A DNA stretch of 64,000 nucleotides from Catajapyx aquilonaris (taxonomy: Eukaryota). A program made the translations under genes and the position numbers. Below the pieces are notes generated by a model that was given only the letters and a program-made list of their open reading frames with translations, did not search any database and had not been told where the DNA came from. Shown here in pieces: positions 13,297 to 54,885 of this stretch (its first letter is position 1; the number at the start of each line of letters is the position of its first letter). Location: the NCBI GenBank assembly GCA_000934665.2, contig JYFJ02000722.1, positions 1-64,000 of the forward strand. Reading direction: 5' to 3'.

Positions 13297-14968
13297 ATGG
13301 CGGGCTTTACGGAGACGGCGCTGGAGAGGAAGCTGGCGGACCTCAACAACTCCCAGCAGAGTATTCAGACACTCTCTCTCTGGCTCATCCACCACAGGAA
13401 GCACAACCAGCCCATCGTCAATGTCTGGCACCGGGAGCTGATCAAAGGTATGTACCAGGTGTAGCTCACATTGGGGACCAGATGGTGTGACGCACACACT
13501 CATGTCAAAGCATGCGCTTGTGGCACTGGTGCACTTTTGGAAATGTGTGTGAGCCCTACTCTTCTCATCTGCAGCTAAAGAGAACCGGAAGCTAACCTTC
13601 ATGTATCTGGCCAATGATGTCATCCAGAACAGCAAAAAAAAGGGCCCAGAGTTTGGAGTTCAGTTCGGGAAAGTGATGCAGACAGCATTTGAGCACCTTG
13701 GTAGCCTGGGAGCGGATGAGAAGACGGCCAAGGGGATCCTCCGCTTGCTGCAGGTCTGGGAGGAAAGGGGGGTGTACGTCAGAAATCAGATTGCAGAGTT
13801 CAAGTCTGCATACACGACTGCAGCGTCCCGGAAGCAGAAGATAACGGCTGAAATCCGAGACAACAAGGGGGGAGGGAGAATGTTGGGAGGTGGGGGGCAA
13901 GTGCCTCTCGGTATTAGGGGTGCTGACGGGGAGCTCCTGGCCAAGAAGGCCAAGAAAGAACTTCCTCCTCCTGCAGCTAGGAAGCGGCCAGCAGGGGCAT
14001 CCCTGAAGGAAGGTAGACCAGTGGTCAAGAAGGAGCGGAAGCATCTAGAGACTGAGGTGGAAGTGGATGGAACCAAGGAGGTGCATGTCAAGTTGTCTCC
14101 ACAGCAGCCACCAGGTGATCCACCAGAGCCAGATGAGATTATCAAAGCATTACAGGTGAGGATGGAGTGATTTCTCAAACTCATTTCTTATCAGTATCTC
14201 TTAAAGACTGTCATCACCTTTGTTGCCATTGTTATTTGGCTTGGCTGGTAATAAAAACCTGAGATTGCATCACTCTGAACTGACTGTAACACCATCTTCA
14301 CTTGCAGGACTTGGAAAATTCAGCATCGGGTGATGCAGTAATTCGTGAGCGTATTGCCAGCCTTCCCCCTGAGGTGTCCGAGGTCTCTCTTCTCAGCAAG
14401 ATACAAGGGGACAGGAACAGCGCAGAGAAACTTTCCCTGCAGGTCTCGGATGCAGTGGAGCTGCTCACATCCTACAATAAACGCCTCCAGCAGGAGATGG
14501 AGGAGAGAAAGTGTGTCTCCAGGATGCTGCATGACTTTGTCCAGGCACAGAAGGACTTGCTTGCGCAGGCAGAAGACAGGCTAGAGGTCAGTTCTGTGGA
14601 TAGAAACCTAGTTTAGCCATACTTATTCGAAATCTGACGACATGTAAATCCGTCTTCCAGGGACATTTGTCCCCAAATTAATTTAAATTTTTCTGTTGTA
14701 ACTTTAAGAAATTTTTAGTCTTTTGCATAGCATTGTAATATTTCATAAGTATTATTGGACTCCTGTGTGATTCTGCATTCACTTGAAGTTACTGTTAACA
14801 TACCTACCATTACAGGAGTACAGAGAGAAGCTGAAGAAGGTTGAGCAGGTGCGGCAGGAACTGCAGTCACACCTGCAGAACCTCCCAGACCTGACAAAGT
14901 TGCCGAGTGTCACTGGGGGACTGGCGCCTCTGCCTTCTCCTGGCGACTTGTTCAACATCCAGACGTGA
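13297..14968 (+). CDS. RPRD1B: Regulation of nuclear pre-mRNA domain-containing protein 1B/1A-like (CID + CREPT coiled coil), 4 exons, ~387 aa
   Basis: MAGFTETALERKLADLNNSQQSIQTLSLWLIHHRKH...KLTFMYLANDVIQNSKKKGPEF is a CID domain. LQDLENSASGDAVIRERIASLPPEV and the C-terminal LPDLTKLPSVTGGLAPLPSPGDLF are also present. Exons 13297-13447, 13575-14155, 14308-14586, 14816-14968. Confidence 0.93.
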
Positions 14969-19255: not shown

Positions 19256-22200
19256 TTAGTCACCAGGATGTTCAGGACAGGAGCGGTTCACTTCAAACCA
19301 CCGGTCGATACAACTGAAAAAGTAAATTTTAAAATTTTAAAATCGTACCACCAACAATACATAATCTGAGATAGAGTTCATTTACGTATGTACAGTAGCA
19401 AGTGTGATTGCACAATACAAAATCTCTATTTAACTCAAATATAATTCATTTACCGGGTGTCTGGTATTCTGGTTTATTTTGATCTTTGACGTAACATTCA
19501 AGTGTCAATTTAGTGTCTTTAGCAGGCCCCAATCATGAGCATGAGGGGACAGAATGCTTACAATTAGGTCCTGCACTCAAGTTTTTCATTTCGCTATAGT
19601 ATTTCATTTCAATGTGCATAATTTTGAGGTGTAAGTCTAGAAGTGAAAGGAAAAATCTGTTATATTTAAACACATTCTTACAATAGAAGGAAACCACAAG
19701 TTCTCCTCGCATGGATGAATAGTCCATGAACTGAACTGGCTGTTTCCCAGCTAAGTAAGCCACGAGCCCCTCAGACATCAAATTGCTACTCATATTTAGC
19801 TGTAGAGAATGTCAGGCCACCGCTAGTGTAACATTTGTTTGTCTTTTCCCATAGAACTGTCCACCATTTCCACTTACCGGAATATAAAAATTCAATGAAT
19901 CCTGCTCGTTATTGAATTCAGAATATTTTTCAAAAATTATCGGGTCTCTCTGGAGGACTTTCAATGCTTTTGGTGCGTATATAATAGAAACCCATTCACA
20001 TACCGTACCAAAAATGTTCTCTGAATGGGGAAACTGTGCTCGAGGCAGGTATCACTGTGATTTTAACATGCGCTAACAACATAACATTAAATTACTTTTC
20101 CTATTCTGTAATTGTCTCTGTGCAAAGTGTACTAACCCATGAACAGTTTCCTGCTGAAAAAATTGCATAATACTTGCACTGACTTATTTTCCCTATTTTT
20201 CACACAGCACCATTTAGCAGACAATAGAGACTGCAATATATGCCCTTCTCCATCTGTATTTGAAGCAAATCCAAGCCCCCCAAAAATCATAATTATATCA
20301 GACACTGTATGGAAAAACCTTCCCTCTTATACCATCTGGTTTGGAAATTGCAATCTAAGGACAGTGGGAAACTTACCATGTACCTTTGGTAAAAATTAAA
20401 ACAATGCATTGGATATAGGACATTGCATTTGATTGGAACCTCCTATATACTTTCAAGAGCCCCTTTCTTTATGTCAGCTACTGTACTACACTGGGAGCAG
20501 TAGAGCAGCTATCCTGACTAATTCTCAACCATAAAGAAGACCTTAGAATGAATTACCTTTTGTGATAGATGCAAAGGCAGGGGAGGCGTGCGATGGTGTC
20601 TCCTTGTTGAAGATCTTCCAGGCAAATAACACATTCTCCCTTGTCATCTGTCAACACATCCTCTGCAAGAGATCCAGGTGAGCAATAAGAAAACAATGGT
20701 TGTCAATCTTCACATCATTTCATATTCTGCAATATCACTCTCTTCACCAGACAACTGCTGCCTTCCTCGATTGCTGGCACAATCGCATGTGCACATTCAA
20801 TAACCCCTCAAGAGCAAACAACTGACGAAAAGCCCCCTCATTTAGCCTATTCTTAGACTTTTCCCTGCACTATTGTTTCCTAGAAGTGTGCGTAGTCCGT
20901 ACCTGCCATGCCACTCTGCTTTTAATGAACCTAACTTTACACCAACTCCGCCCTCAAACTTTTATAGTGCTTCTGAAACACACCAAAAAATTTCCTAAAA
21001 ATTAAAACTTTGCTTTGACATATTTGATGCACCAGCTCACCAAGTGTGGAGCAGGGCACCCAGCAAAGCACCCTTTGAACCAGTTTATCATTCAGCCTGG
21101 GTGGATAACACATATCCAGTGTCAATGGCACATACAGACATGGCTAATGCGGGTTTGTGCCAAAACTGAGCGCATGCTACTTGCCCCAAGGCCGATCCTC
21201 TATATTTTCCAAATAAAAGCTGGCTATTGATTCGCACTTCTGGGAGCCACCCGGCATTAAGATAGTCCCCAGCTTTTGCAGGAGCCAACTTCGCAGATTA
21301 GTGCCCAGATTTAATTGCATTTTCCCAGCCCCATACAAACTTTGGGTTTATATACTCAAAACTTACCGTTATAAATGAGGCGAGGCTTCGTGAGGCACAT
21401 GACAAGGTGACACTCGATGTCATCTGGTAAGACAAATTTGGAGCACACGGGGCACTTGATCCCTGCAAAGAGAAAAAAAAATACAATATTTATTTTTTCA
21501 TTCAAATACTTCAGGTTCATGTCCACATCCTGCATATAAATCAATCCACCGGATGTATACAATTTGGGTGAATTCCGCTCTACCTCAACCTTCCAGCCTC
21601 CATAACATTTTTCGGGGAAATCCTGGCCCCAGTCCAAGACGGACACGTTGACCTGTCCGTGCGTCATTCTGGCCCAACAAAAATCCCAGTGCTTCGCCGC
21701 CTATTTTCGGGTTCCTGTGACTTGTCGATTCCACGAATAGGGAGGGCCCGAATGGGAAAAGAGCGGTTTGTACAACGACCTGGAGATTGCCAGAGATAAA
21801 AGACAGAAAAAAGAGGTCACGAATATGCCCAACAAGTTCAGCGACACGAGTATGTCCACCGACATGCTGACTTACCATGTCGGTATTGCAGTGAGACAAA
21901 TTCAGTGTACAGTGCAACGAACTGTTTGGAAGAAAAAAAAATCAAATACTTTTTTCGCTATCTTCCTAAAAATGGTGTTTAGTGTACCATCATGTGTATT
22001 TTCCCTGCAACTGGTATGACTGGTGCCATATTCGTGACTGTGTAGCTCACGAACTTTACCCGCCACTTTTTTCCTCTCGTATGGATGGATACCTCTCCTG
22101 CACAGCCCAATCTTCATATATGGCGACGTTTCAAATGATAACACAGTCCAATGTCCATCGGTCCAGTCGATATGTACATACCCTCAAGCACTCAAGTTAT

Positions 22201-25200
22201 TAATAATAATGCTTAAAAAATGGCATTAGGTCCGTAAAATATGAGCCGAAAATCAATGAGGCATTGTCTGCGTACCATTTGCATACGCACCGTGTACGCA
22301 GCTCAGGCAAAAAAGTAAGTGATCGATTCCTAGGGCCTCTAGGTTTCCCCATCAGTCTATCAAATATTTGCGTTTGCTTCGTCCTGTTCGGTTCCTTTTT
22401 ATGGGCGTAGGCAGAACTACGGTTAGGGTGGGGGTCGGGCAGGGTTGTTCACCATTCACTTCATATAACAGACCATGGCTAGTGTATGTCTGGGAGGGAA
22501 ATACTGCGAAATTAACGGGATTGGTGTTCATTTTGGCCATGACCACTAACGAAATCTATAAACACGGACGTAAATATATCGCTTTCTATACGACTCTTCC
22601 TCATCCTTTTTTGCAAGCACGCGATAACGTTAATCTAAGACTGCGCAAATGTGCCTATTTTTTTCACGCGTTTCCGCGCATAATATTTACACGTACACAA
22701 TCGCACTAAATAATTCACATATCAAGGCAGTAGGCGCTGGCCAAGAATATTCGACAGTATCGAGTAGAATTTCAATAGTCATTTGTTCTCATCGGAAAAT
22801 GGATTTGGTTATGCTGTGTGACGTTCAGTGTCTCGTAACTGGACTGCGCCATGCTTATAATGGCCCTATGGTTATATCGTGCCCGATTATCCCCATAACC
22901 CCTGCTAGTTCTCACTGACAATAATGAGGTTTTGCGACATAAGCCCTTGCAGCAAATGAATGTGGAGAATAGCGGATGTCCGTAATAAATTGCAAACTAG
23001 GCAGAGCGAACAAATTGAAAGGCCGAATTGTCACACCTGCCCATTGTACTCGTACATCCCGTTTCTGGTAGCGACATGTAAACATCAACGTGAAATTGTG
23101 CGGTCTTTTAAAAAAAATCCGATTTGTTTTTCCCATATGGAGAAAATCGTTAAAAAATCCAACGTCAACAACATATGGTATGGTCGAGACAGGAAGTCAG
23201 AAATGGCCAGAAAAATCACAAGGACCGTACATGGTGGGAAAGTCGCCATACCGCGCGCTCTTACAAATAACCAACCAACCCGTTCAAATCGTCGAACATC
23301 CGCTAAAAATACAAGCATTCCGGTATCTCGCAGCATACCGGCTGGAGAATGCAATACATGGTAATGCCTTGAAAGCCACGCGGAGAATTTGGGGGCGACT
23401 ATAAACATCACGGAGACAAATAGACAAACAGCGCAGGCAAAGCTTTATAGGCGTATAAATGTCATACGACCCTCTCCTGTTTTCGCATATCCTGTACAAA
23501 CACCAATAAAAGATTATACACAACTTGGCTGCACGTAGGCACCAGTTACACAAAAATATATTTGTCAATACGACTGTACGAATGCTACCAGGTTTATTAA
23601 TAGATATTCCATTTTACAGATATTGCCTGGGATTGGATCCAAAATGGCTGCGGGCTAGTAGCATTCGCCAATCTACATTAAACCCTCTGGAAATTTCTCT
23701 CTTCGTGTCATCACAAAATATGCGTACCGTAGAGCACGCGGCGGATGCGAGGGGGCTGCCCCGGTGCGTGCACAATCTCCGGCACCAGCAGGTGCGTGAA
23801 GGCAGCAACCGCATTCCCGTTGGTGTTGGGCACCGCAGGTCGTGGCACCAGCAGTGCCCTCCCGCCCACCCCTACCGACGAGGTGACCGACGGCACCGAC
23901 GCCCGACGCCCTTCCACCTGGGGCTGAACCGTCTCACCGCCGCCAACCACCGACACCCCGGAGCTTGATCCTCTTCTCATCGCCGCCGCCGCCGCCGCCG
24001 TCACCGACGACGACGACTCACTCCCCCCTCGCAGGCCCCCTTCCTAACACCAATGTCACATCACATCTACCATGCATTTTGTGGCATACTCACATTTAGA
24101 TATGCAAAAATACCCACGATTTTCCCGGAGTTTCCTGATTCGTGACGTGCACACAATAAATACCAGAAATTATGCAACTCCAGGCGGAATTTTATGAGCC
24201 AAACAGGTTACGTTCTACAAGGTTAGCTTTTACAGCGTCCATTCAGTGCGGTCAGCCGTAGCAATCAAAACATGGGACGGACAATCGGAGTTAACTTGAA
24301 GCTGGCCAGCTGTAAACCATGTTATACAGTGTGGACAAGGTCAGGAGAGAGGGGTTCTCGTCTTATATATAGCGCCCTATTAATCAAAGGGATCAACGAG
24401 GATCAGACCTGGCTTTGTCCGGGTGCATATGAAATATCCGGGAAAATACAGTAGGTACTAAGCCACACATGGTAGACGTTCGATGTAACACCATAACAAA
24501 AGCCATGGAAAACGTGGCGGAAAAGTCAATAATTTAAACACGCATCACTTGAACAGTTCCATAAAAGATACAAACATTCGGCTAATTTTAGCCGTTGCAT
24601 AAATCCCAGGTTGAGTACCGCCCCTGGCCTTAAACTGCCACGCAAAATGTGGTCCACGCCCAAATAGTCGCAAATTTGTACCGTCCCACCCTGAGGACAT
24701 TCGGTGCCAAAACGCCGTTTCATTTGCTTGCAAAATCGAAGCACCGATTTGGGGGCTTTGTAGCAAAGCGGCAATAATTAAGCGACGGAATCGATTGTGA
24801 ATTTCCCGGAACCCTCTTCACAGCAAGATTGTCACAATGCAAGTGCCATTTCCGACACATCCAAGTTTCGAATTCAGACCTAAGTAACAGTGGTTCCTTT
24901 TTTAAAACATGAAAAACTGCCAGATCGATTCTCGGATATCATTGGAACCTGGAACAAAAGGCTGTGAGGTACTTTCGGCACAGAACTTGTGATTTCATTA
25001 CTTCCGCTACAGCAGGCAAAATAATGCGGTCCATAACCAAACGTATTTTTTGCCGAATTTCGTGACAATTTCAGAGCTGGACTTTCAAGGTTGATAATTT
25101 TTTTGTGTGGACCGCAATGGTATGATTTATGAATGGCTAGGCATGAAGTCGAAGGCACGCGAGGCTAAGTTATGACATGCACCCATTAAACTTTATGCAG

Positions 25201-28200
25201 AATTGGCGGATTTTCTCCTCCTCGGCCCATTACTTGATGTGGCATTGCACTTGTTCCCATGTCAAACTAATATTTTGAAAACTTGACATCCACTTCGCCT
25301 GTACGATTATAGCGTCAAAGATAGCGCTTCGATAAAAAATCGATGCGCGTAAACAACTAAACAAAGACGGTTTCAAAACTGTTATCGCCCCATTTGCGTC
25401 ATGTTCATCAACAATATCCGCAGAGGATTTACGTATCGAAAAGAAAGACACTAGCACGACACGCGACTTCATTTTGGTCCGACCCTGAAGACCGGTCCTA
25501 AAATATAGCATTGATTTCTGTCAAATATTTGAGCAGCCTGAATAAAAAATTGATGTTCGGTCCTGCAGTTGTTTTTACCTATCGAATAATGTACTTCATG
25601 CCCCTGCACATGATCACAAGAAAATTACCACCACCCTAGAGCCCAATGATTGATCTGTTTGCTCCAGCAGTCTGTATGAATCCACAATCGATTCACACCA
25701 TTTTGAATCAAAACTTCAGGTTTCGCCCCAGAAGAGCATCGACATCAATGCATTTTCTACGCTCTAAAACCGGTCCTATCGAATCTGGATTTCCGCCAAG
25801 TTTTCGCACTCTTTCCACCCTTAAAAAAAATAACAAAATACTCCCATAGGTCCCCTTACCGGGTCCTGAGCCACACACGACCCGATGATAATCCCCATCC
25901 CTCAGCAGGGTCCAACCACTGCCACCGACACAACCATCCTCTCAGCACAACCATGGTCTCAACAACCACCCTGTCCCACTCATCATCACAACCCTTGTCA
26001 CTTGGCAAAGACAATCTTTGAACAATCCTGGAGACAATACCCAGGAGTTAGTCACTTCCCATCTACTCAGACCTGAGTGACTAACCCCTGGTATGGCCAG
26101 CAGCACCCACTGTCGACGACCTGCTGCCCTCAGAGTCTTCTCGACAACTCACGTACCACAAAGGCTCACCTGCGCGCGGCGGGTCCTCTTTTGCCTGGTT
26201 TGCAGCGTTGCCCTATCGATCCCTCTAGCTATTCCACCGACACTCCCCCGCACGCCCGACTTTCGAGCCCTCCCACCACCATATTGTTGTGTATGTACCA
26301 TGGGTGCGGGGGAGGGGGACCATAGTGATATAGGTGTCTGATGATGCCGAAGAAAGAAAAAGAGAGGCGGCTTTTTTCACAAATCTGCCCGTCTCCCGGA
26401 AGGATCGGGCCGAGCTGACATCAAAGTATGGGAAACGAGTGAAGGAAAATGGAAGAATTTCAACAAAAATGGGGAAGGAAGGAGAAAGACCTGATTGCAT
26501 GCTCCCAGAGCTTATACTCTTTTTTTTCCAATTCGCTATGAAAGCGGGATGGGATGGAAAAAAGAGGACATAAATCCTTCTAACCAAATAGCACAATAAC
26601 CTTACAGTATAAGCTGAAATTCAATTTTTGAATATTACTTCAGGTGATCTTTAACGTGGTGTGGTGGTCATATTGTTATGCTTTGACCATCCAAGCATCA
26701 GGTCAATGGTTCGATCCAGGTGGCCGATAACTATCTTCTGCCAAATCCCCCTCGACCCGTATAAGATTTGCGCGTCTTTGCCCATTGGCAAATAAAAATG
26801 TCTGGTGCAAGGAGGATAACAGTCCCCAGCGACCATATAAAAAGGACAGTGATTCTCCTGGAATCGGCCTTCCAATACATTTACAGAAAATTACACCAGT
26901 AAAACACACTAAAATAACAATAAGGTGCATGAGAGATGCATTGGGCCAATTATTACGCTTTATGCAGCTTGCTGGCCAAGATTATGAGGCTACTGCGAAT
27001 ACAAGCCGGCTAAAAATATATTATAATAGATTACATGAATATGTGATATTCATGGTGAAAGGAATACTGCGAGCACCTGTATCATTATCCGTGACGCCAT
27101 TCACATGCGCCCTATTTCCAACACCACACCTGCGCCGTAATCATTAGACCAAAAACCCACTGTGGCACACCGTACCCAACGACATCCTCCCCGTAAACAA
27201 TCGACCTTCTGCATAACTCGATCTTCCACATACAGCTGTTGAATCGACTAATCTTCTCTTTCTTAATTGCCTCAAGCATTATGTGACACCGTGAAAACTT
27301 TCTTGGATTCTCTGATTCACAGGATGTCCCCTGAATGTCCACTGAATGTCCATCGTCTCATCCTGTGAATCAGGCTACCCTTGTGCTTCTCTTGCCCACC
27401 GGGAAGAATACACTTCAGGGGCAAAATTCGAGCCCAATGTCATTCAGTATCCCATTCCCCAGGCTGTATTGTTCCGCAATAATGGCCTGCATCTGTGGTT
27501 AAGAGCGGTGCAGGTGAATTATCTCCGGCCAAATGTTAGTACCGCACAAGGCCAATATTACCGTTTCTGCACAGCGATTCAACTCTGTGTAAACCTTGGG
27601 CGTGAGAGTTAATGCTGATGCAGCGTTGACGCCAGCTGTGGACTATCTAGCTGCTCCTGGATACATAGCAAGAGTTTGTTGTTTTTGCTGCCCATGCCGC
27701 AAATTCAGATCCAACAGGAAGTCCGACGGTGGGAAATCCCACACGCGGCCACTGCTGTATAATCGTTTATCTGTTGTTGACTGGACGCTGTCGTTGTCGT
27801 TATTAATTTATGGCAATGTTTTAACCGCCAATTCGACTTGTTTGCAAAATCAGGCGTTAAGTCGGACACGTTTCGTGGTGTATTAAACTGGGCGGTTCCG
27901 AAGAAAAAAACAAATGTGCCAGAAAGTTGTAAATAACACATCATAAGTTTACTGTTCAGCTTGAACTCGACATCATTTTTGTTTATTTCGTCGACAACGC
28001 ATAAAGGACAGCGATGTCTCATATGTTGCATAAAAGTTGCAATAAATTCCGACACGTACACTGTTTGCCAAATTTTAATTAAGGCTGCCAGCTATGTGAC
28101 TCATATGAACCTGAACATGATCAAAAACAGAAAAGTGCATATAAACTTCATAATTACAACCCTTCCCCTGGAAACATAACATAAAAACCGCATTGTGGGT

Positions 28201-31200
28201 GCAGATTCAAGGTGAACTAAGCTCTATCTAGAGCACTGAAACACGGAAGTGTTGCCAGTATACCGGTGATATGATGAAACAAGGCGCATGTTGGGCCCTA
28301 CACCAGCAAATTGATGACGACAGCTTTTTGGCCGGGGTACTGGGTTAAATATGTTCACCTCCGCCTTCCACCATGATATATTACCTGCATGGAGCTACAC
28401 AGTGACTCAGCTGATCCTCCTAATCATTTTTTCCCCTTTTCCCTTCACATCAATCCGACACTACATTGCGCCCAATTCGCAACGGCGCATCCGATGTAAT
28501 ATGTCGGTTCAAAACCTCCTGACATTAATCATAAATCCATCGTTCGGAATAACTTTTGGGTTAATATGGTGCAGTGAACCCATTTTCCGGTCTGGAACAT
28601 TCTTGTCCAAGTTCAAAGGACTGTACACTCACAACGAGGGTCATAACCTCACAAGTCAGCTCAAAGTGCAAGTGGAACTCTGCAAAAAATAATTTAAAAA
28701 AATAACAACCCATTTAATCACTCTGTGGTGACATATGGTGCAATATGGTCTGGAATAAATGCAGTCTGACGAGAACAAATTGACCAAAATTAGCACCTTT
28801 AATCGGACAACTCGTCGAATTACAATCAAAAAAGCCCTAGTGAAAGTTCAACTATTCGCTGGCCTCTCTCCCACAGTTTCGATCGATTCTGATGTAAATA
28901 ACCGATCGCCTCTGACTCCACAATGGCACTGCGGTCTTTTCAGTACCTTCCCTCACCACCTCCATAGACTGTCAGACCCCGTTTTATTCCATCTTTCGAT
29001 TTTCAAAAAAAAACTATTTTAGACTGTACTTTGTAATTTAACCAACCTGCTGGGCCGCTTTGGCTCGTTCCAGGCTGAATCCATGGGGAAATAATGGGCC
29101 TCACATTTTAGACTTGTTAGGAGCACTTTCGATACATATAAACGATGTAATGGCCGCGGTTACGACGTGCATGGCACACCGCGCCCAAAAAAAACCCACG
29201 GCCTCCGCTCTGGTGATTAGTAGCTTGCTTCAAAATCCGCTTTTGTTGCTGCATGTCCGGCAACAATAGTGGTTTTTGAGATATGGCCCGGTTGTACATT
29301 GTGTTACGATGAGTCTCTAGTAGGTTTAACAGTAATGTCGATACAGGAAGTTGAATAAACAATGATGAGAGGTATCATGGTTTATTGCTTCCATAGATAT
29401 AGAGAAATATAGGAGGACCTTAGCCCCGCCCATCTATTTTCTCCGTTCAGGCAGCCAGTCGCAAGTGCCGTTTTCTGTATACAGAACACTTGTGTTATGA
29501 CGAATTCTAGGCACATGTGAAATTACACATGTTGGGGCAATGCCCAAGACCCAAGTGTAACAAGGGATTGTTAACCCCAGCTATACCAGTTGGAACGATC
29601 ATTCACTTGCCGCAATTGTTGCGGAAGTGAACATTTTATTCCTTCACCTACTCCCTCTTGAACCGAGGACTGGAGCAGAGCACCTTGTACAAATTAATTC
29701 ATATAAATTGCCCCAGCCAGTCTGTCCAAGAAGAAAAGGTACAACCATGACTTATTCTCCTCTGCAAGAATGTGACTGTCACGGTGAAGTACTGTTGCGT
29801 GATGCGTCTGCTACAATAATCGGCTCTTGGATACCAGCCAAGTACTTAGCCGCTGCATAAATCCTCAAGATCACTACATCTTGGTGACATGAACTTTCCA
29901 CCAGGGTAAATCCTTCCCCGTTAGAGAGCAGGCACCTGCTCATGAACAGCTCCCCATTCAGACAAGAGTTGATGTCTGTATTACTCCAATAAAGTAACCG
30001 TATTGCAGACAGTCGCTTGGGTTCGTGATGCTTTATGAGTGGAAATTGGAAAGCAAAAAAATCGGCGGAAAAATGTCCTTATCTCCCGGGCACGCTCGTT
30101 TAGAACCGAGCCGGTTCTCTATATTGAATATCATTGCTATTAGAGAGACCCACAAGAGACGGTGCACTTCCATCAGCGTTCTCTTATCAACTGTATAAAG
30201 CGAGCAATGACTCTTCTGAACCCAATGAGCACATGAACATGATATAATATGTAAGCGAATAATCACGGAACTGCTGACATAACCGTACGATGACGAAATG
30301 TCATGCCTTGACAAACATCACATGTCATCTACATAAGACATATCCGCTGGTAACCGAAATGCATAAGGAGCCCTTCGCAAAGTGCAAGTTGCCAGTTGCA
30401 CTTACACTGTAATTTAACCAATCTTCGCCTCATGGTCCATCAAGCTCGCAGCCCTCCCTCGACATCAGTCCTTGACCCGACGGATATTTCACACATCATT
30501 AGACATCCTCAGTGTATGTGCACAAACGCGACGGTTTATGTGCCATAAGCTGTATCTTGCCAGTGGCAATGGTGACGTCCGCCTCAGGCGTCATCCTAGT
30601 AAATAAGAATATCTCTATAAATACACCAAGGCCAGCAGTGCGACGGCTGACTTGCTTGTTCCTTCGATCCTCAAACCGTTCTCATTTTTTTTTCTTTCAC
30701 TTCCACCTTCTCCCCTGCCATTTTTGCTCTCTTCCATTGATTATCCGTCGATTTTTCATCAATCAGTGGTCTGGACACTTCAAAGAGAAAACTGCTGATG
30801 GCGGAAATTTTAAGGAGTGGAAATACTGTACAGGGTGGGTCATGAAGTCGGCCGGATATGTCGGGTCGTTAGGGTTGGGGACTTGAGAGTGCCAATACAC
30901 CAAAATAGATGTTTGAGATGTTCCGCTATATCAGAGTCCAGAATTGCCAGGAAGTTATTATATAAACTGCCAATAAGTATGACGGAGGTTGGCGGAACAG
31001 AAAGGCTCACCTTACCCATTCTGCTGATCGATTGTCAACGTCAAGGAATTCGGATTAGCAGCAGTAGCACATCTGCCAGCCAATAGGTAAAGCTCTCAAT
31101 ATCCTGACCAAGCTAACCCATCATTAAAACACATTCGCGCATTTTTTTTTTAAAGAGAGAGAAAAACCATCATGTTTACAACTAGCAAATGCATTTTTAT

Positions 31201-34200
31201 CAGCATCAATAAATCCATATCTCCCAACCGCATTTACGGCGCAATATCCCAGGAGGTGCAGGAATTTCGACCACCCTGTACTATAACAACCATGCAAAAC
31301 GTGACATTTCAGCAGTCCCCCCCCCAAACAAAAAAAATGTCAATATGTGCCTCTATTTCCGTTCTATTTTTAAATCCACCATGGGTCTATCGATAGTGAA
31401 ATATCGGGAAAATTCCAGTTCGTTACACGGTCTGCCTTTTGCTGCAGGCGATTCCGACTCGTACTGTTTCCTCGTATTTCGCTGACCACTTCCAAGAGCC
31501 CAACCTCGGTAGGGCCCCCGGGTTAATAACCTGCATTCAAGTCTCAGTTAGAAGGCAACAGAAAAAAAGTGTTCAAAGTCGAGGCTGTTCACTTTGCAGA
31601 CCTGCGGATCATTTTTTCGCCTGATTCATTCTCGCAAAAAAAGCGCAAAAATGTCCTAGTCTGCGAATTAGCACCTAAGGTAGAAGAAATTGAGGTGTAG
31701 AAACCGCACGCAACCTAATTACAAGTCGTCAATAATCGCTCAGTCAAAATTAATATGAGCAAACGGTATGATTTCCCAGAGGTGGAATCCATAACTATTA
31801 ACATATTAAAAAGGTTAATCTCCCTCCAAAAAATTCTGTAGTTTTCGGTTACAAATTGCGCAGATGCGGTATTCACACGGTATTCCCTTTGTTCCTTAAT
31901 TCCGCGTAATCTGCATGGGGCTTAACTGAATCAAGATCCTTACCGGCACGTAATTACGCGTCGCCCATACGTACAACCGATAGTAAGCAGACAATAACGT
32001 CGAACACAGGGTCATCACGAGACCTCCCCCAGCAACGTAGTCTGATCGATTGCGACACGCCGTACTTTGCCAACGCACGACCCTTTCCCGTGCATCTACG
32101 GAAATTCACTCACGTGTCCCCCATAAAAAATGGACAACCCACGCACTTTATGATGCCCCGCGCAAATGACTCGGATTCCCATGACGATGGACAACGTGGG
32201 TGTGGTTCACCTAGCGTGTTCCGTGTTATAAACGGGGTCAAGGGCCCTGCTGGGCTGCGGGAACCCATTCCTTCACGGCAAGGACGCAAGAAAAGGTCAA
32301 AGGTCGTACCGCCTTATACATTCGGATTACACACTTCCGCTTTTAATATCAAATATCAGCGACATATATGAGAGCATTTTCCACCTGTGGACGAACAACC
32401 AATTATGTGGGACATGATACATGGTGTCGTTCAAAGTCTAGCTCGAGTCATCTAGTGGAAGTGGAGTTTTAAATTTTCAGAGTGGAAAATGGGACGTCTA
32501 GGGAGCGGTAGGGGTCAGATGTAAATGGTAAATGTGGGATCAATTGACAAAATTAATGGGGTGCAGGAGAGGATGGGCTCGACAAGGTGGATTGAGGGAG
32601 GTCAAGTGAGGTTACGCTTCCAGCATGGGCAGCGACCGTTTTATTTAAAAAAATAATGAATATGGGATTCACTGATATATAGCTCTAAACTTGTTTTTAT
32701 TCCCATAATAGCCTAAATATTAATGCCAGCACGTACAGAATTTACCATATTTTTCCACTACTGTAACCGCAGAAACGGACATGTAGGCCATTTTAGAAGC
32801 AACTGCTGTTGACGTCAATATTTCTGTCGGGGGCTATTCGAAATGGCGCATTCCCTGAATTTGCAAAAGAAATTGATGCCTGACCCCGCACCCAACTTGC
32901 CTAATATTCTCCGGATGACCTTCCCACGGGGAGTTTCAGACGACCCCCGAAGATTAATCTTTTCGTCTCTTCAGTGTAATTACCTACCCACATAAATATC
33001 GGAACATCCCCAGGTCGTCTGGCGTGTCCATCAATGGCTTTGAAATGGTACGTCACGTAATTTCAAATATGGACCACGGACGTTGCACGTAAAAAGCGTC
33101 TCCCATCTACCCACAACGCGTTGGAACCTCCCAACATCAAAATTATTCAGCCCACGTAACGACCTCTACAGAGAGTGAAAAACACGGAATAGTTAGTGAG
33201 TCTAACATTGTACCGAGGACGTATGGGATCTTTTCTTTCCAGTCGCCATTATACGCCAACAAATCTAGTCACTCATCTTAAATGTCACTTTTTTATATAT
33301 AAATACAGAAACAATGTCTAAAGGTCGCAAAGACTCAGCACTAAAATATCGTGGTACAAATGAGTCACAAGGGCACAGATGAGGATAACGCTTTGTATTT
33401 GGCACACCGTGGTTTGTTTCAAATGCGTCATTTTCTCAGCTTAATATGTATATTAACATAATAAAAACGGATCAATTTTTAAGGATGTCATTTATGGGCA
33501 GGCTCTGTATACGTCTGCCTGCCAGGCATTTATTATTGACTTGCGTAGTACGTCAATTAAAGCCATGAAGCAACCAAGCCTTGCCACGTGTCCAGAAGTT
33601 ACAATTGTGGTCTGTACAATTTCGCACCAACAAAGTTATCAAGTACATTTTCCCAAAAATCCCGTTAGAGGAAATAATTCAACTCCGCCGAATAGGCCAG
33701 AAATATTCATACACGTTTCACAATAACTAGAATTGTCAATTTATGACATTACGCTCGACGGGAAAATTCGTTTTATATCTCGACCCTCGTTCCCATGATA
33801 TACACGTGCACCATATTGATAGGACAGCAATCAAATTACTATCGTGAAGCTTGTGGAAAAGAACATTCTCGTCCCTTTTAAAATCAGATTGCATGGCACG
33901 CTACATTCCACTTCTTTACAATACAAACCTGACCGCTTTCAACTGTACCAAATCGTCTGTCAGTAATCCGATGCGGGGAATCGCCGCCAAAACTTCTCAA
34001 GTACACAATAGTTGAGTACTCCCACCTCTTAAAGAAAAGAAAAGCTGCCCCAATTTTGAATGCATCACCCCCCTCCTCCTTGGAAAATAGGTCAGTTGCG
34101 AAGGTCAGCCACAATGCATTTTCGCCCGAAAAATATTTCTGGCACTTCGCGTGCAGACGCCGAACGACGGTCGGGCGATAAACAATCGGAAGTTGGTTCT

Positions 34201-37200
34201 ATCCAAGCGGTGACCGTGACGTCACCAAAAGTGCCTCCCTTGACCTAAGTGGCCCATTCCCCTGGATTGCCTTTTACTGCGACCCACACGCTGGCCAAAG
34301 TAAATGTCGGCGAAGGTGGAGAGGAAATGTAATCCCCCAGAGTTCTATTTCCGCCATTGCGACCTCCACTAACTGGACTAATAGTCGCGACAAGACCCTC
34401 CCCACTGATTTTTTTTTCTAAAAAAAAAAAAAAAGGTCGTGACGTAGTGTTGTCGTCAAAAGAACCACACCTCGACCACATAAATCATTTCCTTACCTTC
34501 TCACGCACTGCAACGTATGCAACGTGTGGGTGTGGCTGTTACTAAAATAGACTAGGAATTCTTGATGCGACCATTAATAAGTATACGAATTTTGAAAAAA
34601 TAATTGAGGCGCTACATTATTATTGCCTGAACCTGCATATCAATAGAACATGATATGGACTTTAGCTTCCAGATAAGCAGTACCCATTACGCAAGTGTTC
34701 GCATATTTATAGCCATATTCTTAGACGTCAGAATAACACAATTTAGATCGTCCCATACATTTCCCCGAGCCATTCTCACCCCCCAAAAAACAAATCCACC
34801 ATTAGTAACTTGGCCATGTAGCCTGGAGAGTGTCGGCGAAAAAGCTTTTTGGCAGTGTAGGCCGCTTTTCCAATCATGACTGTAATCGAATTTTACAAGC
34901 TAAATGGGTCCCCGTTGAAGCCATGGAGTCCCCGTGCCAAACTTTCCGGTCCGGCGTAAAATGTCAACAGGTGAAGCTCCCAAAAGCGTCCTGACATATT
35001 TACTACAACATTGCACTTCCGTCAACACCCATCAGTCCTGAAGCTGGGTGAATCAGCCGGCAAGGGTAGTCAAACCCTTTCAAGGGGAGGGTGCCTATGC
35101 AAGGAAGAGTCGATTCTGTCTCGACACATGGGGAGCCATATGTGCGACCTATTTGCAACACTGCGGTTGAGGGTTAAAACACTCCAGAGCTCTTTACGTC
35201 ACTGTAACCTTGCCGGTTGATGAGTAAATAAATTTCCTCTGCAGAAACTGATTTTTTTTTGGAGGCCCAACGATCCCTTCTCGTTATGCACATTTATGCA
35301 GATGGACAAATCAGCGCCTAGCAAGGGGTCAGAAAAATAGAAAACGTGTCTGCTCTTTTCCCTAGGTTCTGATTCGATTACTGCAATTAGTAAGTTACAT
35401 TGGATGGTTTTTCCCGGATCCTTCTGACATATTTTGTACCTGCTAATAAAGAGTAATGACGCAAACTGTACATTGCCTGCAGGATTGAGGCAATAAAAAA
35501 CGCAGCCGTGGTGTAACTATCGGCAATACAGACTACTCGATTCTCTGTACTTGATGTGCTAATTTGCGCCGTTTCCGTGCCTACTAACATCTTCGAACAT
35601 GCATACGTAGGTGTCACTGACGTGTGCTTGAGCAGTATCGTGTACACAACCTATTACATACCTCACCTGTACAGCCATCAAATCAGATATTAAAGCAACT
35701 TGCTAATGCATGTTTTTGCAATTTTATACTGCCACATGAACGAATCGCACGCTACATGCAGACGAGTGGATAATAATGTGAACTGACAAAAACCGCTTAA
35801 CATGGCCGCAAATTTAGGTCAAAGTGCCACAAAAACATCCTGATACACACTGCATTATATCTCCATCATCTAATCAGTCTGGATGGTTTTACCCAACATG
35901 CAGTATATTATTTTTGCAATCCCAACCTCCAGATAATGCATCGGGGAACACCCTATACAGACAACCCGTATAACTGGAACGGGGCATACAAGGCCACCGA
36001 ATGTTAATATTAATTGCAACATAAATAACCGCTATTGAGAAACGATATTAAGCATTTACGCCCTACTTCGGCACAAAAAGGCCGTGACACTGCTGCCATG
36101 GGTCAAGCACCAGAATAGCTCCGAACAATGTCTGCCTTTCGCCCCCAAAACAATGCACAATGAAACGCCACCACTCTTTCCAGGCTACAGCAACTATTGC
36201 TACCAATCGCACTTGCTATTGTATTCAATTTGAAAAATTAGCCCGGTATCCACGCACTTGCAACATACCAACAACCTGACAATTAACATCCAAAAGAAGA
36301 TAAGTCTGGGTATTACACCCGGTTATAAGATTAGGGCACCCCAATCCGCCAAGCGCTGATGAGCCCCCAAATTAATTTAAAATGAGCGCTTATTGGGTGC
36401 CCAAAAATAATACCAGGGCTGGAAAGACTTGAGGGCTAATGCCCTTGGAAAAGAAAAAGGAGGAAAGGATGGAATCATGCCAGGTAGGCAGCACCTTCAA
36501 CCATCACCATGCATGGATATTACGAACCACCGCCCAATATTGACAGCGTCCATCATCAGCTGTTGACCTTCGTCTTTTGTCAACACTACATTGTTCGACT
36601 GGAGTCAACCGGTCCCAAAAACTACCGTATTCATTGAGCTTTATCCCTGGCGTTAACCCGACTTTATGAGACCAGTTCTTTACGTAACGGGGGGTCAAAA
36701 CGCCGATTCTGTCCAATTATGGCCTGGAACTTTCTGTCGTTGCACCACTTTATGACCCTGTGTGCGAACTGCGAGGTATTGTTCAGGGTAAATACTGCGT
36801 TTTAAAAAAAATGGTCAGTACTGGGGTCAGTAATCGCGATTGCCCCTGAGCTGACTAATCGATAACCCAGCTCAAATGGCAGAAAAATATACTTACATTG
36901 CACGCGCTCTGGTGTGTATCCCCGTTACCCATTACAGTGCAATTCCTCCCAAGCAGACTGCCAGATCGCTAATGGAGATCCGGAGCCAATACTAGGATAG
37001 CAACAAGAACACGGGGTCCTTCCCAAATTGAATTCGAATGCAATTTGGGAGTGGCGAGTGGGCCTGTTTTCACCCGATAAACCGTTTGGAAACCCCCGGT
37101 GGATGATAATCCATAGCAAGCTCTCCCAATAATCCCACCCTCCTACCAGATCCTCCAGGGCTTGGCAGGAGCAAAATAAATCACACTATTCCTGCACGAG

Positions 37201-40200
37201 GTATCCCACTCTCCACGTGACAAAGTGCAATTCCGTTGAGAGCTAACAACAACACCAGCGGGCCTTTTCATTTTCGCCCAAATTATATGCCCAGGCGAAC
37301 CTGGAGGAATTCCGTACCTGTCCCTTATCCTACCACCTCCCATGTAATCTGCATTTTATGACCACCACTGAATCCCAAAGCCATAATGGAAGCTAATTTG
37401 GCAGTGATTTTGGGGGTGTCCTAAAACACTGTCAGTTTTCAACCAAAGCAAATGGTAATAACATTTTTAAGAAGTTAGTACTGCTGCTTTCCCTTGTGTG
37501 TGAGGTAATAAGCTGACGTGACTTGAGCTTCTTTTTAATCTTGAAAGTAGCAGTGTTCACACCCCTTCCCTTTCTGAGAAAACTGGGTCACCTAATTTGA
37601 CTTATCATTAGTAGCGGCTTACTGAGGAGCACTGCTCTGCTTCTGTCATTAGTCTAAGATCATTAGTTTCTTAGCCTTGCCTCTGGAAGAGATTGACTTC
37701 TGTCTAGAAAACCAATAAATACTATAGCGTCGTAGTGCAGGCTGGAAACTCTACAGTGCGCAATAATCAGGAGCATCAGCTCTGTCTTAATTATGAACGG
37801 AATCGTTTCTCTGCCTCTAATAGCGTGAGCAAGGTCTTGCCTGAATGCATCAATCTCTCGGTGCCTTCTGGTATCAGCGGTTTTATCCCCAAGGCTGCAA
37901 CCTTGCAAACAACGTCAAAGTTGCTGGGGAAAAAGCCTCGCCCTCTGCATACAAAACTCTGATCTTTGCTGCACTTATTACTCAGATTTGCATCAGGACC
38001 AATGTGTCGGTATTTTAGAAAGGTAGGAAGGCAGATTGACTTACCATTCAAGGACCAGATGTGTGCCGGGAGTGAGTGGGTGGTGTAGAACCGGCCGAGG
38101 CCAAGGTGGGCGGCTAGCGGACTGTCCAAAATGTGGTCCTCTGGGGAACTTGTGTCGGTCTCAGGTGACTCTGCCAGTTGTAGCGCGGATGCTGGCAGCA
38201 TCAACGGTACTGGCACTGATAATGGCACGCCGTCGTGGTTGGGCCTCGTGTCCGGGACACTGGATGGAGACGACAATATTTTACCCATGTCCAAACACAC
38301 AACAATGACTACAATTTTGAGTAACACTATCACACAATCAGATAAATTATGCCAATTTGTGCCGTCAGGCTTTCAAGCGTGCACTAGGAAAGTTACTTTC
38401 TTATGCACTCATGCAATAATGCTTCCTTGCATATTGCTCATTTCATGCATACAGCACAACTGGTCACTGCCATACTTGTATCCCTTTCCTAATCTGCTAA
38501 AGGTCATACTGTCATGGTATTAGTCATAACTAGATCTCTTGACATCTCAGTTTTCCTAGTACTGTCATTTATTTGTCATTTTCACAACTGCAAACAATGG
38601 CCAATAAATGACTCATCAAAAGGTTACTGCCTCTGACATCTCATCATATGTATCCTCATCTGGATTCTGGAAACAACTGAAGCATGGCATGAACACATGC
38701 AAAAAAAATACTATCTCTCACTACCTGGGTGTACCTGGCAATGCTGGAAAGCAGTTAGTTAGGCTTTCGTCCTGCAACAGCAGAGCTGACTACTTCACCA
38801 AAAACATACATATGTTGTGTATGGTATGTTAACTCATATCAACTATGATGATGATGCAATAAAAATGGGTAAACTGCATAAAAAATATGGTTCTAAAATA
38901 AAACATCTGGTAAAGCTAAGTAGTGCGCAATAGATACAAATATGTAGGCTATGTTCATTAACTGTACGCATATTTTTTTTTAAAATTAAAGAAGTCAACA
39001 ATCAAAACTTATTGCAAAGTAAATCACATGGCACAACCTGACACTTGATTTTATTTCCTGCTCAGAAATAATATTGTAGAATAATGCATACTGGAAGGAA
39101 ATGAATCGCTTATCTTGATCAGAGTCCTTCAACTGTACAATATAGCAATCACTCAACCTAGAAATCAGCTGTTGCAACTCACAATTCAGCACCTGAGATC
39201 TGCATTAATGGCAGCAATGACAGCAATGGCACGCAATCAACACACAAAAGAGGAATGCCAATGTCATTTCCACATACAGAAAAGAGTGACTTGCAATTTG
39301 CTCACACAAAAAAGTAGACTACACTTCAACGTTAGGTGATTCCATACACTCTAGTTCAGTTTCCACTTACAGTTAGTGGGAAAAAGGTTTTCGTCCACTT
39401 ACTAAATGTAAACTGAACAAGAGTGTAGTGACAGGGTACACCATTTGAGCTTCGCTGATTTGCAATATTCCCGAGTATGTCCAACAGACACACGGGTGTA
39501 TTAGGCAGACAATTTTAGAGTAACTTAAGTATTTTATTGCAATCCTTAAAGCACACATTACACCACTTAAATAAGATGGGCTATTTGCCATTTGTAAGTA
39601 CTCCCATTCAAATCTCAGATAGAGGGTTTAGTTGGCTCAAGACTGTGGCCAAGGCTATGCTTGCATGGGCTTCATATACTTTCATCATCCATCACATCAT
39701 TCATATACTTGCAGTTCTCTTGTCAGTACTGCATCCCTGGTGCATTTTAGTGAGGATTGGGTGCAGACAAAGTACATGAAACCTTGGAGAGCAACACTAC
39801 TCCATGTTGCCTATGTACGAGAGCCAACCAGACTGCTGACAGGATGACATCAAAATTGACAGGATGCATCAAAATTGTCATTTTTTTCCTTCCTGTATTG
39901 CATATAGGTACTGTATTAGAAAATTGAAATATAATGTGTTCCAAGTATATGAATTCCTTTAGTTAAAGGAAGTTTCACTCGAAGTTGTTCATTTTTTTTT
40001 AGCTTTTGCACCCCTAACCCGGCAGCAACTGCTACATTCAACTAACGGGGCTCCTGGATAAGGGCACAACAAGCTACACAAAAATAACTACTTCAGGTTA
40101 TATTAGCGATAACTAAAATTGACCCATGAACTTGGGACACCCTGTATAATTGAGAAAGGCGTGGTTGTTAGGTGTGCATTCATCAGTAGTAACATTGGGA

Positions 40201-42069
40201 GCAAAACAAATATGTCCCACACTGCAACTTTGCCCATTAGTCCATTACTGAGAAGCAGCTTGAGGTCATTAACTACTTCTGTACTTCAGGACAAAGAGTC
40301 CTAAACCTGTGATTCTAAGTACCAGAGAGAGAGAGACAGATTTATCACAAGATAGCTCTGACCTTGTGCCAAGTAATTTTGCCCTTTTTGGATGGATAAA
40401 GAAGGCACTGCAGGGATGAAAGTTCAAAACTGGATGAGGAAGTGAAGTCCACCTAGGTGCACTAGCTCCACAATAATATTATAACTTCATAAGCCAAATT
40501 TTGCACTAGACATTTTCAAACCTATGTGGTGTTGTGACAACTGCAACAATCCAAAGGTTTGCATGAGGAGAAGTCGTGTTATTGTTCAGTTTTCAAATGA
40601 AGTATTAAATTTTCTCTTATATTCAGTGTAGGATAAAAGAACAATTCACTTTCTCTACTTATTGAAATGCACAGGCTGTGATAATACAGTGCAAGGCAAG
40701 GTTCCCATGCTATCTGTCCATTGAGTATGGATGGTTTTCATATCAGAATAAAACACCCGTATATGTCGGGCAACACTTGATAACGCTGGTACCCTAGTGT
40801 TTCAAACAAAGTCTATGGCGGTTCAAACTAGCCTTAGAAAAGGTACTCTTCACGCTCTTCTGCACATTCTACATATGCCAGGAAATCCGCCTAATGCATG
40901 AAGCTGCCAAAATTAAATAAACCTTGCTCCGTTAGTGTATAAGAAATTGACACGCTACCGTCTGTAATACAAATCACAGTATCCTTTTAATTGCAGATGT
41001 CAGTCAAATAGAAAGTGGACCATTTGTATACACAACAGGTGCCACAAAGGACTTATAATCAAATTCATGAGATAGTGACAGTCCACAATGAAAAATGATC
41101 CATGCTCCTGCACCCTGTATGTCCTTTATATCTATTGTATGACCGCATTGTTACAGGCATCATCACATTATCATCGTGTGTACATGTTGAGATGTGGCGT
41201 ATGTGTCTACTATCCAGTTGCAATGTTGGAAATGAAGAATTTATTCTCAGACACATTCTGCATACCATTTCCCACATTCTGGCATCCTTGTCATATGAAT
41301 ATCACCATCTGCTCTGCTGGTTCTTGTTATTTACTTAATTACATTTCACAACTGACAGCTGCAGAATAACAATGCCAATCCTAGAATAATTTGGTATTTC
41401 GTCCAATCCGACAAATCCTGTGGTCATTTCAAGAAGATAATTATGGCCCATGCATTACATGCACAATTTTTCCACCATGACGGCCAAAACATCCTACTAA
41501 AATCCCTGCATGATCGCAAGCTCTGCTTGTGATGGGTAACCAAATGGAACCCCTTTCCCTGTGCAACCCACTCTGATGTCAAGGGACACAGTTGCATGAG
41601 TGAAAGCACTCATTCTCGGTTGCCTTTTTCTGACAACACTGACTCGTGCAGCAAATCTCCCAAATTTCTTCAGTTGACAGTCGCCTCAATGTAGCTGAAT
41701 CTGATGATTTCCCCCCTCTCTTTCCTTGCAACACCCAAACCCAGCGTAGAGCAACATGTCAACGCACCTTGAGAGCGACCTAGCCCTGTGTCGCTCCGGC
41801 CCTCCTGTCCCACCACCTCCACCCTGCGAGGTTGGCCTGAGGAACCCAAACCCCAACGCGGCACCTCCTCCTCCTGCACCTCCCCCTACAGTGGCACTAG
41901 AGTGGTGTCCACGCAGCCCGTTGCTGGTGGCACCATGGTGTGAGGACATGACCTCCGCACTGCTGCTGCTGGAAAAGGTCCTGGCCCTGGGGCTGAGAGC
42001 CCCTCCACTGTGGTGTCCAACTCCATTCTCGCTCCCTCCCCCCACAGCCGTGCTCGCCTTCGCCCCCAT
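19256..42069 (-). CDS. ZNRF2: E3 ubiquitin ligase ZNRF1/ZNRF2-like (N-myristoyl motif, C2HC zinc finger, RING-H2), 5 exons, ~258 aa
   Basis: The start is MGAKAST, with RARTFS and RARSLS motifs. The zinc finger is GIKCPVCSKFVLPDDIECHLVMCLTKPRLIYN. The RING-H2 is EDVLTDDKGECVICLEDLQQGDTIARLPCLCIYHKSCIDRWFEVNRSCPEHPGD*. Exons 41768-42069, 38045-38259, 21367-21462, 20557-20662, 19256-19313. ZNRF1 and ZNRF2 cannot be distinguished here. Confidence 0.93.
21876..21921 (-). other. Candidate 46-nt cassette exon in ZNRF intron 2
   Basis: The acceptor is TTTTTTTTTTCTTCCAAACAG and the donor is ATG|GTAAGT. Entered in phase 0 it reads FVALYTEFVSLQYRH+G. Entered in phase 1 it reads VRCTVH*. Confidence 0.5.
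23728..25898 (-). CDS. Candidate alternative 5' coding exons of the ZNRF gene (25860-25898 and 23728-24043), giving a ~204-aa isoform
   Basis: ATG GGG ATT ATC ATC GGG TCG TGT GTG GCT CAG GAC CCG|GTAAGG ends in phase 0. It joins TAG|GAA GGG GGC...CTC TAC G|GTACGC (316 nt, open, phase 0 to 1), which is in frame with the G|GGATCAAGTGC zinc-finger exon. Confidence 0.62.
27312..27373. repeat. Perfect 15-bp inverted repeat with a duplicated 11-mer in the loop
   Basis: CTGATTCACAGGATG (27312-27326) pairs with CATCCTGTGAATCAG (27359-27373). The loop carries CTGAATGTCCA twice. Confidence 0.8.
30829..31280. mobile_element. Putative Tc1/mariner-type MITE
   Basis: The ends are TA-CAGGGTGGGTC and GACCACCCTG-TA, i.e. 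CAGGGTG termini flanked by TA. No coding capacity. Confidence 0.5.
39929..40148. mobile_element. Degenerate Tc1/mariner-type MITE
   Basis: The right end is CTTGGGACACCCTGTATA. The degenerate left counterpart is TATAATGTGTTCCAAG. Confidence 0.35.
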
Positions 42070-42989: not shown

Positions 42990-43680
42990 TTGGTTACACT
43001 GATTCAATCAATCATCTCAGCCAGAACTGAAATCACATGCGGGCAGAAGATGTTGAAAGCTTCCCACATCTCTCGCATCAGTCTTCAAAGAGCAGGGCCA
43101 ACCATATTCCCTCGTCACCACCGCTCGTTGAAGACGGGCGGCCAGCATCCCAGGAAGACTACATCGCCAAAGGGCAGCATCCTGGACTTCATCACCACAG
43201 GGACACCGGTCATCATCACCGTCACTTCCACCAGCATCCATCAGCAAGCCAAATCTAACTAGGTAGGCCCAAAAAGGCCCATGTCCTGAAACCATTCTGG
43301 CCACATGTCCATGCACATGCCGGTCCAGGGAAACATTAGGAAAGAAACCAAAGTACCATTTCCCCCGGGCCGCCTCCCATGACCTCTGCCAGTCCTCCTT
43401 CGCAGCAACGTCTCCGAAGGCGGTTCTGGCAAATAACTTCGTTCATCCTCAAGAGTAGTCGCCCGTTTGGCCTCCTGGTCAGCTAATTCATTACCTTGAA
43501 CACCTACGACATGAGCCTTGACCCACCCCAGATGAGTACTGTTCGGTCTGTTACCCCTAACTTGTAAGAGAATCAGCGCTCGAACTGCAGTGGGATCAAC
43601 AGTGTGAGAGTTGCTGATAGTTTGGAGAGAGGACAAAGAGTCCGAGAAGATCCAAATCCTCAGCCATTTGGATGGCACGA
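42990..43680 (-). mobile_element. 5'-truncated non-LTR retrotransposon 3' end (RNase H + C-terminal Cys motif; R1/I-like), frameshifted
   Basis: IFSDSLSSL...WVKAHVVGVQGNELADQEAKRA is the RNase H C-terminal half. After a frameshift comes VSGHGPFWAYLVRFG...CPCG...WRC, typical of LINE ORF2 C-termini. Confidence 0.85.

Positions 43681-44724: not shown

Positions 44725-48045
<3,321 letters not shown>

Positions 48046-54846: not shown

Positions 54847-54885
<39 letters not shown>

Follow-up and report, generated by a model that had tools for sequence, protein, structure and literature searches.

A stretch of 64,000 nucleotides (nt) of the Catajapyx aquilonaris assembly (contig JYFJ02000722.1, positions 1 to 64,000; called the window below) carries on its minus strand, from 42069 to 19256, a gene for an E3 ligase of the ZNRF1/2 type, one intron of which contains two further coding exons that probably supply the enzyme with a second N-terminus. 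Joined, the canonical exons (Table 1) encode a protein of 258 residues, in which a C-terminal UBZ-like zinc finger (KCPVC...H...C) is followed by a RING-H2 domain, and which begins with a putative N-terminal Met-Gly myristoylation signal (MGAKAST at 42069, assigned by the presence of the motif). The zinc-finger exon by itself gave weak Pfam hints only (zf_UBZ, expect value (E) 0.085), and the 86 C-terminal residues encoded in the window read as in P0002, a homologue that carries PF17123 and PF13639 and whose sequence comes from a 1358-nt contig assembled out of a public sequencing run. Identity of the window protein to P0002 is 86% over the full length; to proteins from thrips (Megalurothrips, Thrips palmi), a stick insect and a locust it is about 60%. 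The canonical gene model is confirmed by such relatives, since all eight proteins returned by a search with the open reading frame (ORF) of exon 2 start with MGAKAST and P0002 has its exons in the same order.

Exon 2 and the zinc-finger exon are separated by an intron of 16,582 nt (38044..21463), in which the sequence-only reading, putting the intron at 16.6 kb, had placed a 13-codon Met-Gly exon ending in phase 0 at CCG/GTAAGG, an open exon of 316 nt rich in guanine plus cytosine (GC) and leaving in phase 1, and from these a product of about 204 residues. Each of these elements was recovered when the sequence was re-read and the values recomputed. The mini-exon is preceded by an in-frame TGA two codons 5' of its ATG (25898). 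The 316-nt exon has a GC content of 0.71, compared with 0.66 for canonical exon 1, 0.42-0.46 for the flanking intron and 0.44 for the window, and is open in the claimed frame, while the other two sense frames hold two and three stops. In that frame GC content falls from the third to the first to the second codon position (0.78, 0.73 and 0.62, respectively), an order that is repeated in exons 2 and 3. Its exit phase is the one required by the zinc-finger exon (21462), and the same as that of canonical exon 2. Mini-exon, 316-nt exon and shared exons together give a complete zinc finger-RING (ZnF-RING) protein of 204 residues, which starts MGIIIGSCVAQDP-E... and passes through ...RIRRVLYG-IKCPVC into the finger.

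The query used to find relatives was the conserved 86-residue C-terminus of P0002, which lets proteins with any N-terminus surface; 1081 proteins passed a threshold of E<=1e-20, and the best 120 of these were sorted by the sequence preceding the zinc finger. Most of them begin with MGAKxS or a close variant. One, P0023, annotated automatically at NCBI as 'E3 ubiquitin-protein ligase ZNRF1 isoform X2 [Frankliniella occidentalis]' and 208 residues long (against 204 in the window), begins MGVVLGSCVPDEP-E... and ends its N-terminal region with ...SRASRARRNLMYG (...RARRNLMYG) directly before IKCPVC. Its first 13 residues and the mini-exon are identical at 7 of 13 positions and similar at 11, and the two proteins share a start of the form MG-[VI][VI][LI]-GSCV-..-P followed by Glu, a low-complexity linker of about 105-110 residues with basic Ser motifs, a basic RR-x-L-(x)-YG junction running straight onto IKCPVC, and the same ZnF-RING core. 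When the N-terminal region of P0023 was compared with the whole window in six frames by tblastn, the best match placed residues 1-13 on exactly 25898-25860 (E 0.087). An ungapped BLOSUM62 scan with these 13 residues gave the mini-exon a score of 50, with a runner-up of 30, out of 127,918 six-frame positions (mean -16.6, standard deviation 7.8). The match also has an ATG at its start and a GT donor at its end, and both its strand and its intron are correct; the scan imposed none of these conditions. A counterpart of the start peptide of the Frankliniella isoform is in this way encoded in the window, 5' of the zinc-finger exon and in the form of a start exon.

The other end of the exon pair is matched by a wasp. 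The last eight residues before the finger in P0105, a Polistes exclamans model, are RVRRVFYG, and their best match in the window is RIRRVLYG at 23749-23726 (score 35, next 22, among 127,948 positions), which corresponds to the last eight codons of the 316-nt exon, including the split Gly, and falls exactly at its donor. In a global alignment of the N-terminal regions of the window form and P0023, a score as high was reached by 1 of 500 shuffles, with the likeness confined to both ends. Of the claims made in the sequence-only reading, that of an alternative Met-Gly N-terminus on the ZnF-RING core thus gains from the start, length and junction of the Frankliniella isoform and from the Polistes junction, but not from the linker, which is not conserved; conservation in relatives likewise holds for the mini-exon and the 3' end of the second exon, but not for the 316-nt exon peptide as such.

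Table 1. Exons and signals of the ZNRF gene in the window (exon/intron borders are marked by a slash, intron bases in lower case)
Feature	Position	Strand	Basis
Canonical first coding exon, MGAKAST..., with RARTFS and RHRARSLS motifs, phase 2 out	41768..42069	-	Start as in 8 of 8 homologues
Canonical exon 2, ...SPETDTSSPEDH...HSLPAHIWSLN, phase 1 out (ATG/gtaagt at 38045), skipped by the alternative isoform	38045..38259	-	
Alternative first coding exon (at least its coding part), ATG plus 12 codons, MGIIIGSCVAQDP, phase 0, donor CCG/gtaagg	25860..25898	-	Best window match to residues 1-13 of Frankliniella X2
Alternative second coding exon, 316 nt, 105 codons plus 1 base, acceptor ttag/GAA, donor ACG/gtacgc (phase 1)	23728..24043	-	GC 0.71; sole open frame; end matches Polistes motif
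Shared zinc-finger exon, (G)IKCPVCSKF...RLIYN, phase 1 in and out, strong acceptor	21367..21462	-	Identical to P0002 segment
Shared RING exon, EDVLTDDKGECVICLEDL...CLCIYHK	20557..20662	-	
Shared last coding exon, SCIDRWFEVNRSCPEHPGD, TAA at 19258-19256	19256..19313	-	
In-frame internal ATG, Met35 of the 204-residue form, 170-residue product if the 316-nt exon is its own first exon	23978..23980	-	Rival start, disfavoured
Putative donor, CAG/GTGAGC (exon end 26170)	26161..26172	-	Sequence present

We consider it probable (about 0.75), as judged from sequence, that the ZNRF gene makes at least two N-terminal proteoforms, the canonical one of 258 residues and another of 204 residues that is produced by way of the mini-exon and the 316-nt exon from a separate transcription start. 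The canonical messenger RNA (mRNA) would join exons 1 and 2 to the ZnF-RING exons. The second mRNA would have its start in the 16.6-kb intron shortly before 25898, the simplest place being the region of raised GC at 25.9-26.4 kb (GC content is 0.53-0.55 at 25800-26400), and would be spliced from 25860 to 24043 and then from 23728 to 21462. Splicing of exon 1 or exon 2 into 24043 leads to a stop within about 10 codons, and a stop also stands just upstream of the mini-exon ATG, so the alternative protein needs an mRNA lacking the canonical start, and such an mRNA would in turn need a promoter of its own. The donor-like CAG/GTGAGC that had been put forward as the end of a possible upstream non-coding exon is present as a sequence.

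The two forms would share the 86-residue ZnF-RING core and differ in everything that precedes it. Compared with the canonical insect form, the alternative form is without the MGAKAS signal (MGxKxS in general terms), both RxRxxS sites (RARTFS and RHRARSLS) and the LPxHIW motif (LPAHIW). Its Met-Gly start is hydrophobic instead and has Cys as residue 8 (MG-[IV]-[IV]-[IL]-GSCV), the Cys being conserved between the window and the thrips. This start is followed by a low-complexity linker with RRGS39 and RRAS62-V-P, the latter presumably a 14-3-3-like R-x-x-S-x-P site and a candidate for phosphorylation, and by the basic junction R-I-R-R-V-L-Y. Myristoylation takes place on Gly2 after the initiator Met, with a small uncharged residue at position 6 (Ser or Thr in the textbook case) and no Pro at position 7; the window and thrips starts both have Gly2, Gly at position 6 and Ser at position 7. 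Dual acylation by myristate and palmitate is known from the N-termini of Src-family (SH4) and G-alpha proteins, which the window start resembles in having Met-Gly and a nearby Cys able to take a second lipid, but from which it differs in that the Cys lies at position 8 and not at 3-6, that position 6 is Gly, and that no basic cluster follows. The alternative form would be tethered by another lipid anchor than the canonical one, N-myristoyl Gly2 possibly joined by S-acyl Cys8, and its N-terminal peptide, if lipidated, would read myristoyl-GIIIGSCVAQDPEGGLR.

The background on ZNRF1/2 given in the sequence-only reading, myristoylation and regulation by phosphorylation, agrees with what passages of two papers state (PMC4889327, PMC10869362). 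According to the former, ZNRF2 is tethered to membranes by N-myristoylation and is released upon phosphorylation of Ser19 and Ser145, Ser19 and Ser82 mediate 14-3-3 binding, and binding to mTOR, V-ATPase and Na+/K+-ATPase requires myristoylation (PMC4889327); according to the latter, the fly homologue detour (CG14435) retains the myristoylation motif and regulates autophagy (PMC10869362). As far as these passages go, human ZNRF1 and ZNRF2 and Drosophila detour/CG14435 resemble the window gene in family, catalytic core, Met-Gly membrane tether and basic phospho-Ser sites within a disordered N-terminal region (PMC4889327, PMC10869362). By their N-terminal position, RARTFS and RHRARSLS of the canonical form may match Ser19 and Ser82 of human ZNRF2 (PMC4889327). 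The canonical Akt/14-3-3 release switch would also be lost from the alternative form, with targeting and regulation exchanged and catalysis kept. By analogy, the alternative form is likely to constitute a pool of the enzyme that has another anchor and another mode of regulation, since ZNRF2 depends on myristoylation for its membrane partners and is released by phosphorylation (passages of PMC4889327), and it may accordingly differ in localisation.

Several observations weigh against the 204-residue proteoform. The acceptor at 24043 is weak, its pyrimidine tract being poor (50% over the final 20 nt), and two ATGs lie within about 60 nt 5' of the mini-exon start codon, which would hamper translation unless transcription begins very near that codon. 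Position 6 of the alternative start is Gly, where Ser or Thr would be the textbook residue. A single protein among the best 120 relatives has the MGVVLGSCVPDEP start, and the model in question, P0023, is an automatic prediction; the junction motif RVRRVFYG likewise comes from a single relative, a gene prediction named 'hypothetical protein'. A one-residue insertion or deletion at the junction leaves the corresponding Frankliniella 8-mer no higher than 25th place in the ungapped scan. The middle of the 316-nt exon does not align with the thrips protein, the linker being acidic and rich in Glu and Asp in the thrips but rich in Gly, Ser, Ala and Val in the window, so that a homologous linker from start peptide to zinc finger is missing and only the last residues (RR-x-L-YG) are alike. 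As the exon middle is not conserved, the RRxS sites of the window and of Frankliniella do not align either. The 316-nt exon peptide found no match at E<=0.001 by HMMER among 1.84 billion representatives, and none at E<=10 among 1000 candidates from a word-index search of longer proteins (outside the range of 58-184 residues), in which the Ala, Ser and Gly runs of the query may have crowded out relatives. Pfam returned no family for this peptide or for canonical exons 1 and 2.

These results bear on other explanations of the exon pair. High GC content yields long ORFs cheaply, as illustrated by ORFs of 58-152 codons in other frames, including the plus strand, over 23.5-24.1 kb, and a peptide with neither homologue nor Pfam family would be expected if there were no functional coding exon at all, the open frame being due to composition and the region an intronic island of high GC, be it a regulatory element, a non-coding exon or an ancestral exon in decay. 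This is very unlikely, given that the other two sense frames are broken within the exon, that both boundaries coincide with splice signals and with the required phases, and that both ends are the top-ranked matches to proteins of relatives among some 128,000 positions. The weak acceptor would be accounted for if the 316-nt exon were a first exon with a start site of its own between 25.86 and 24.04 kb, the mini-exon being unused and the ATG at 23980 opening a non-myristoylated protein of 170 residues (MRRGSSSG...). The frame of that ATG is closed upstream by a stop (the tag of the acceptor), a TATATAA lies upstream at about 24370, and alternative starts other than Met-Gly occur in isoforms of Hetaerina and Lepidoptera. 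The mini-exon, as the single outlier match to the thrips start with ATG, frame and GT donor all intact, would be hard to explain if it were unused, and the 21 codons upstream of Met35 are open in the claimed frame only; the internal start is not favoured, because the mini-exon is conserved, and we regard it as quite unlikely.

Lastly, the 316-nt exon or its 3' part could be inserted in frame, as a cassette, between exon 2 and the zinc-finger exon, instead of or besides a new N-terminus. The Polistes model (P0105) and two beetle models (P0055 and P0117) do carry an extra segment after the ...IWSLN of exon 2, and an AG at 23873-23872, which has the best pyrimidine tract (65%) among the internal candidates, would open a correctly phased exon at 23871, inserting 144 nt (48 in-frame codons) that end with RIRRVLY. 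Entry at the 24043 acceptor from exon 1 or 2 would run into the stops mentioned above, the conservation of a separate Met-Gly mini-exon with the thrips isoform would be left unexplained, and the Polistes entry carries no name beyond 'hypothetical protein'. In place of the second N-terminus, the cassette appears unlikely; cassette use may, however, coexist with it.

Two further ideas about the exon were tried and dropped: that it is a diverged copy of exons 1-2 (BLASTP against canonical P0002 was not significant, E 38), and that the Ala-rich tail of a Gryllus bimaculatus model, P0003, is its counterpart (BLASTP not significant, E 5.5). In that cricket model exon 2 continues into the Ala-rich tail (...GMRNASAAAAAPAPAANAAL...) and not into a zinc finger, possibly through mis-joining of a GC-rich exon of the same intron. 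The minus strand also holds ATG GGT at 38288 (window 38286-38291), just upstream of the exon-2 acceptor (38260/38259), as a third in-frame Met-Gly start, which reads MGKILSSPS... into exon 2. It fits M-G-x-x-x-S and would be a putative third myristoylated N-terminus if the region of the exon-2 acceptor were the 5' end of a transcript; a start of this type was present in none of the eight proteins found with the exon-2 ORF. On the plus strand, a 152-codon ORF at 23510-23968 runs antisense over the 316-nt exon and is most likely a by-product of high GC content.

Beyond this gene, the window contains an exon of Beclin/Atg6 at 45430-46182 (minus strand; APG6 BARA domain E 3e-57, coiled-coil E 8e-12), about 3.4 kb upstream of the ZNRF start and on the same strand, an adjacency that is curious given the role in autophagy ascribed to detour in passages of PMC10869362, although the linkage may be coincidence. 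Between it and the 5' end of the ZNRF gene, two overlapping ORFs (43017-43681, minus strand), one with a weak RNase H match (E 2.5e-4, below the Pfam cut-off), probably represent a retroelement fragment. Neighbouring genes are further represented by an exon of a CID-domain protein (13553-14170, plus strand, E 5e-20) and an exon with a RING-variant (MARCH-type) domain (58827-59222, minus strand, E 2e-13). A 400-codon, mucin-like frame with runs of Ser and Thr (54757-55959, plus strand) drew low-complexity tblastn matches and has no Pfam family.

Among the best 120 of the 1081 relatives, extra exons before the finger or alternative N-termini are common in annotated arthropod ZNRF genes. In four beetle models (Tribolium X1, Leptinotarsa X2, Gonioctena and Dendroctonus; P0055, P0117, P0090 and P0048) exon 2 is followed, before the zinc finger, by an additional exon with a conserved internal MGQ-x-x-S (MGQNISS, MGQSLSY, MGQSFSP and MGQSIST). 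From its sequence, this exon has the look of a concealed alternative start for myristoylation to which the annotation has given the place of a cassette. In the damselfly isoform Hetaerina X3 (P0029) and two lepidopteran X2 isoforms (moths; P0076 and P0103), exons 1-2 are replaced by mutually similar starts other than Met-Gly (MAYRRTVVTT... or MYRRRYRTT...). Beetle, wasp, damselfly and moth models thus resemble the alternative form of the window in having an extra segment before the zinc finger, either between exon 2 and the finger or in place of exons 1-2, and the Polistes segment ends like that of the window. They differ in that the beetle and wasp models keep the canonical N-terminus and carry the segment after it as a cassette, with no new start, and in that the beetle, odonate and lepidopteran segments have no counterpart in the window intron: alternative N-termini of beetle, odonate, lepidopteran, locust, mirid and cockroach origin, compared with the window by tblastn, gave no convincing match inside it.

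The recurrence of Met-Gly among arthropod front ends supports the hypothesis of a swappable targeting module. Whether insect ZNRF genes possess a conserved kit of lipid-anchor N-termini, exchangeable on a single ZnF-RING core, is more doubtful, and we put this forward tentatively. Its members may comprise MGAKAS (myristoyl only, with the Akt/14-3-3 release switch), MG-[IV][IV][IL]-GSC (myristoyl plus acyl on Cys8, without the switch) in the window species and thrips, and MGQ-x-x-S in beetles. N-terminal proteoforms produced by an alternative pair of 5' exons are of a known kind, and the orthologous isoform is already annotated automatically in a thrips. The word 'isoform' is absent from the main text of the eLife paper on ZNRF2 (PMC4889327) and of the detour paper (PMC10869362), and no paper describing alternative ZNRF N-termini was found in open-access text.

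For gene annotation, the result amounts to a corrected model, as two coding exons would otherwise pass for intron sequence, and it gives the automatic isoform call in a thrips the backing of conservation in a distant species. ZNRF1/2 ligases act only where they are tethered. If the 204-residue proteoform is real, its N-terminus, free of the release sites and with another putative lipid anchor, would provide insects with a version of the ligase whose targeting is constitutive or different, which knock-down and rescue work using the canonical cDNA alone would miss. If the kit of interchangeable N-termini were also to hold, promoter choice would post one ligase, constitutively or switchably, to different membranes, and the R-x-R-R-x-[LF]-Y junction, kept from wasp to the window species, would be a functional element beside the ubiquitin-binding finger.

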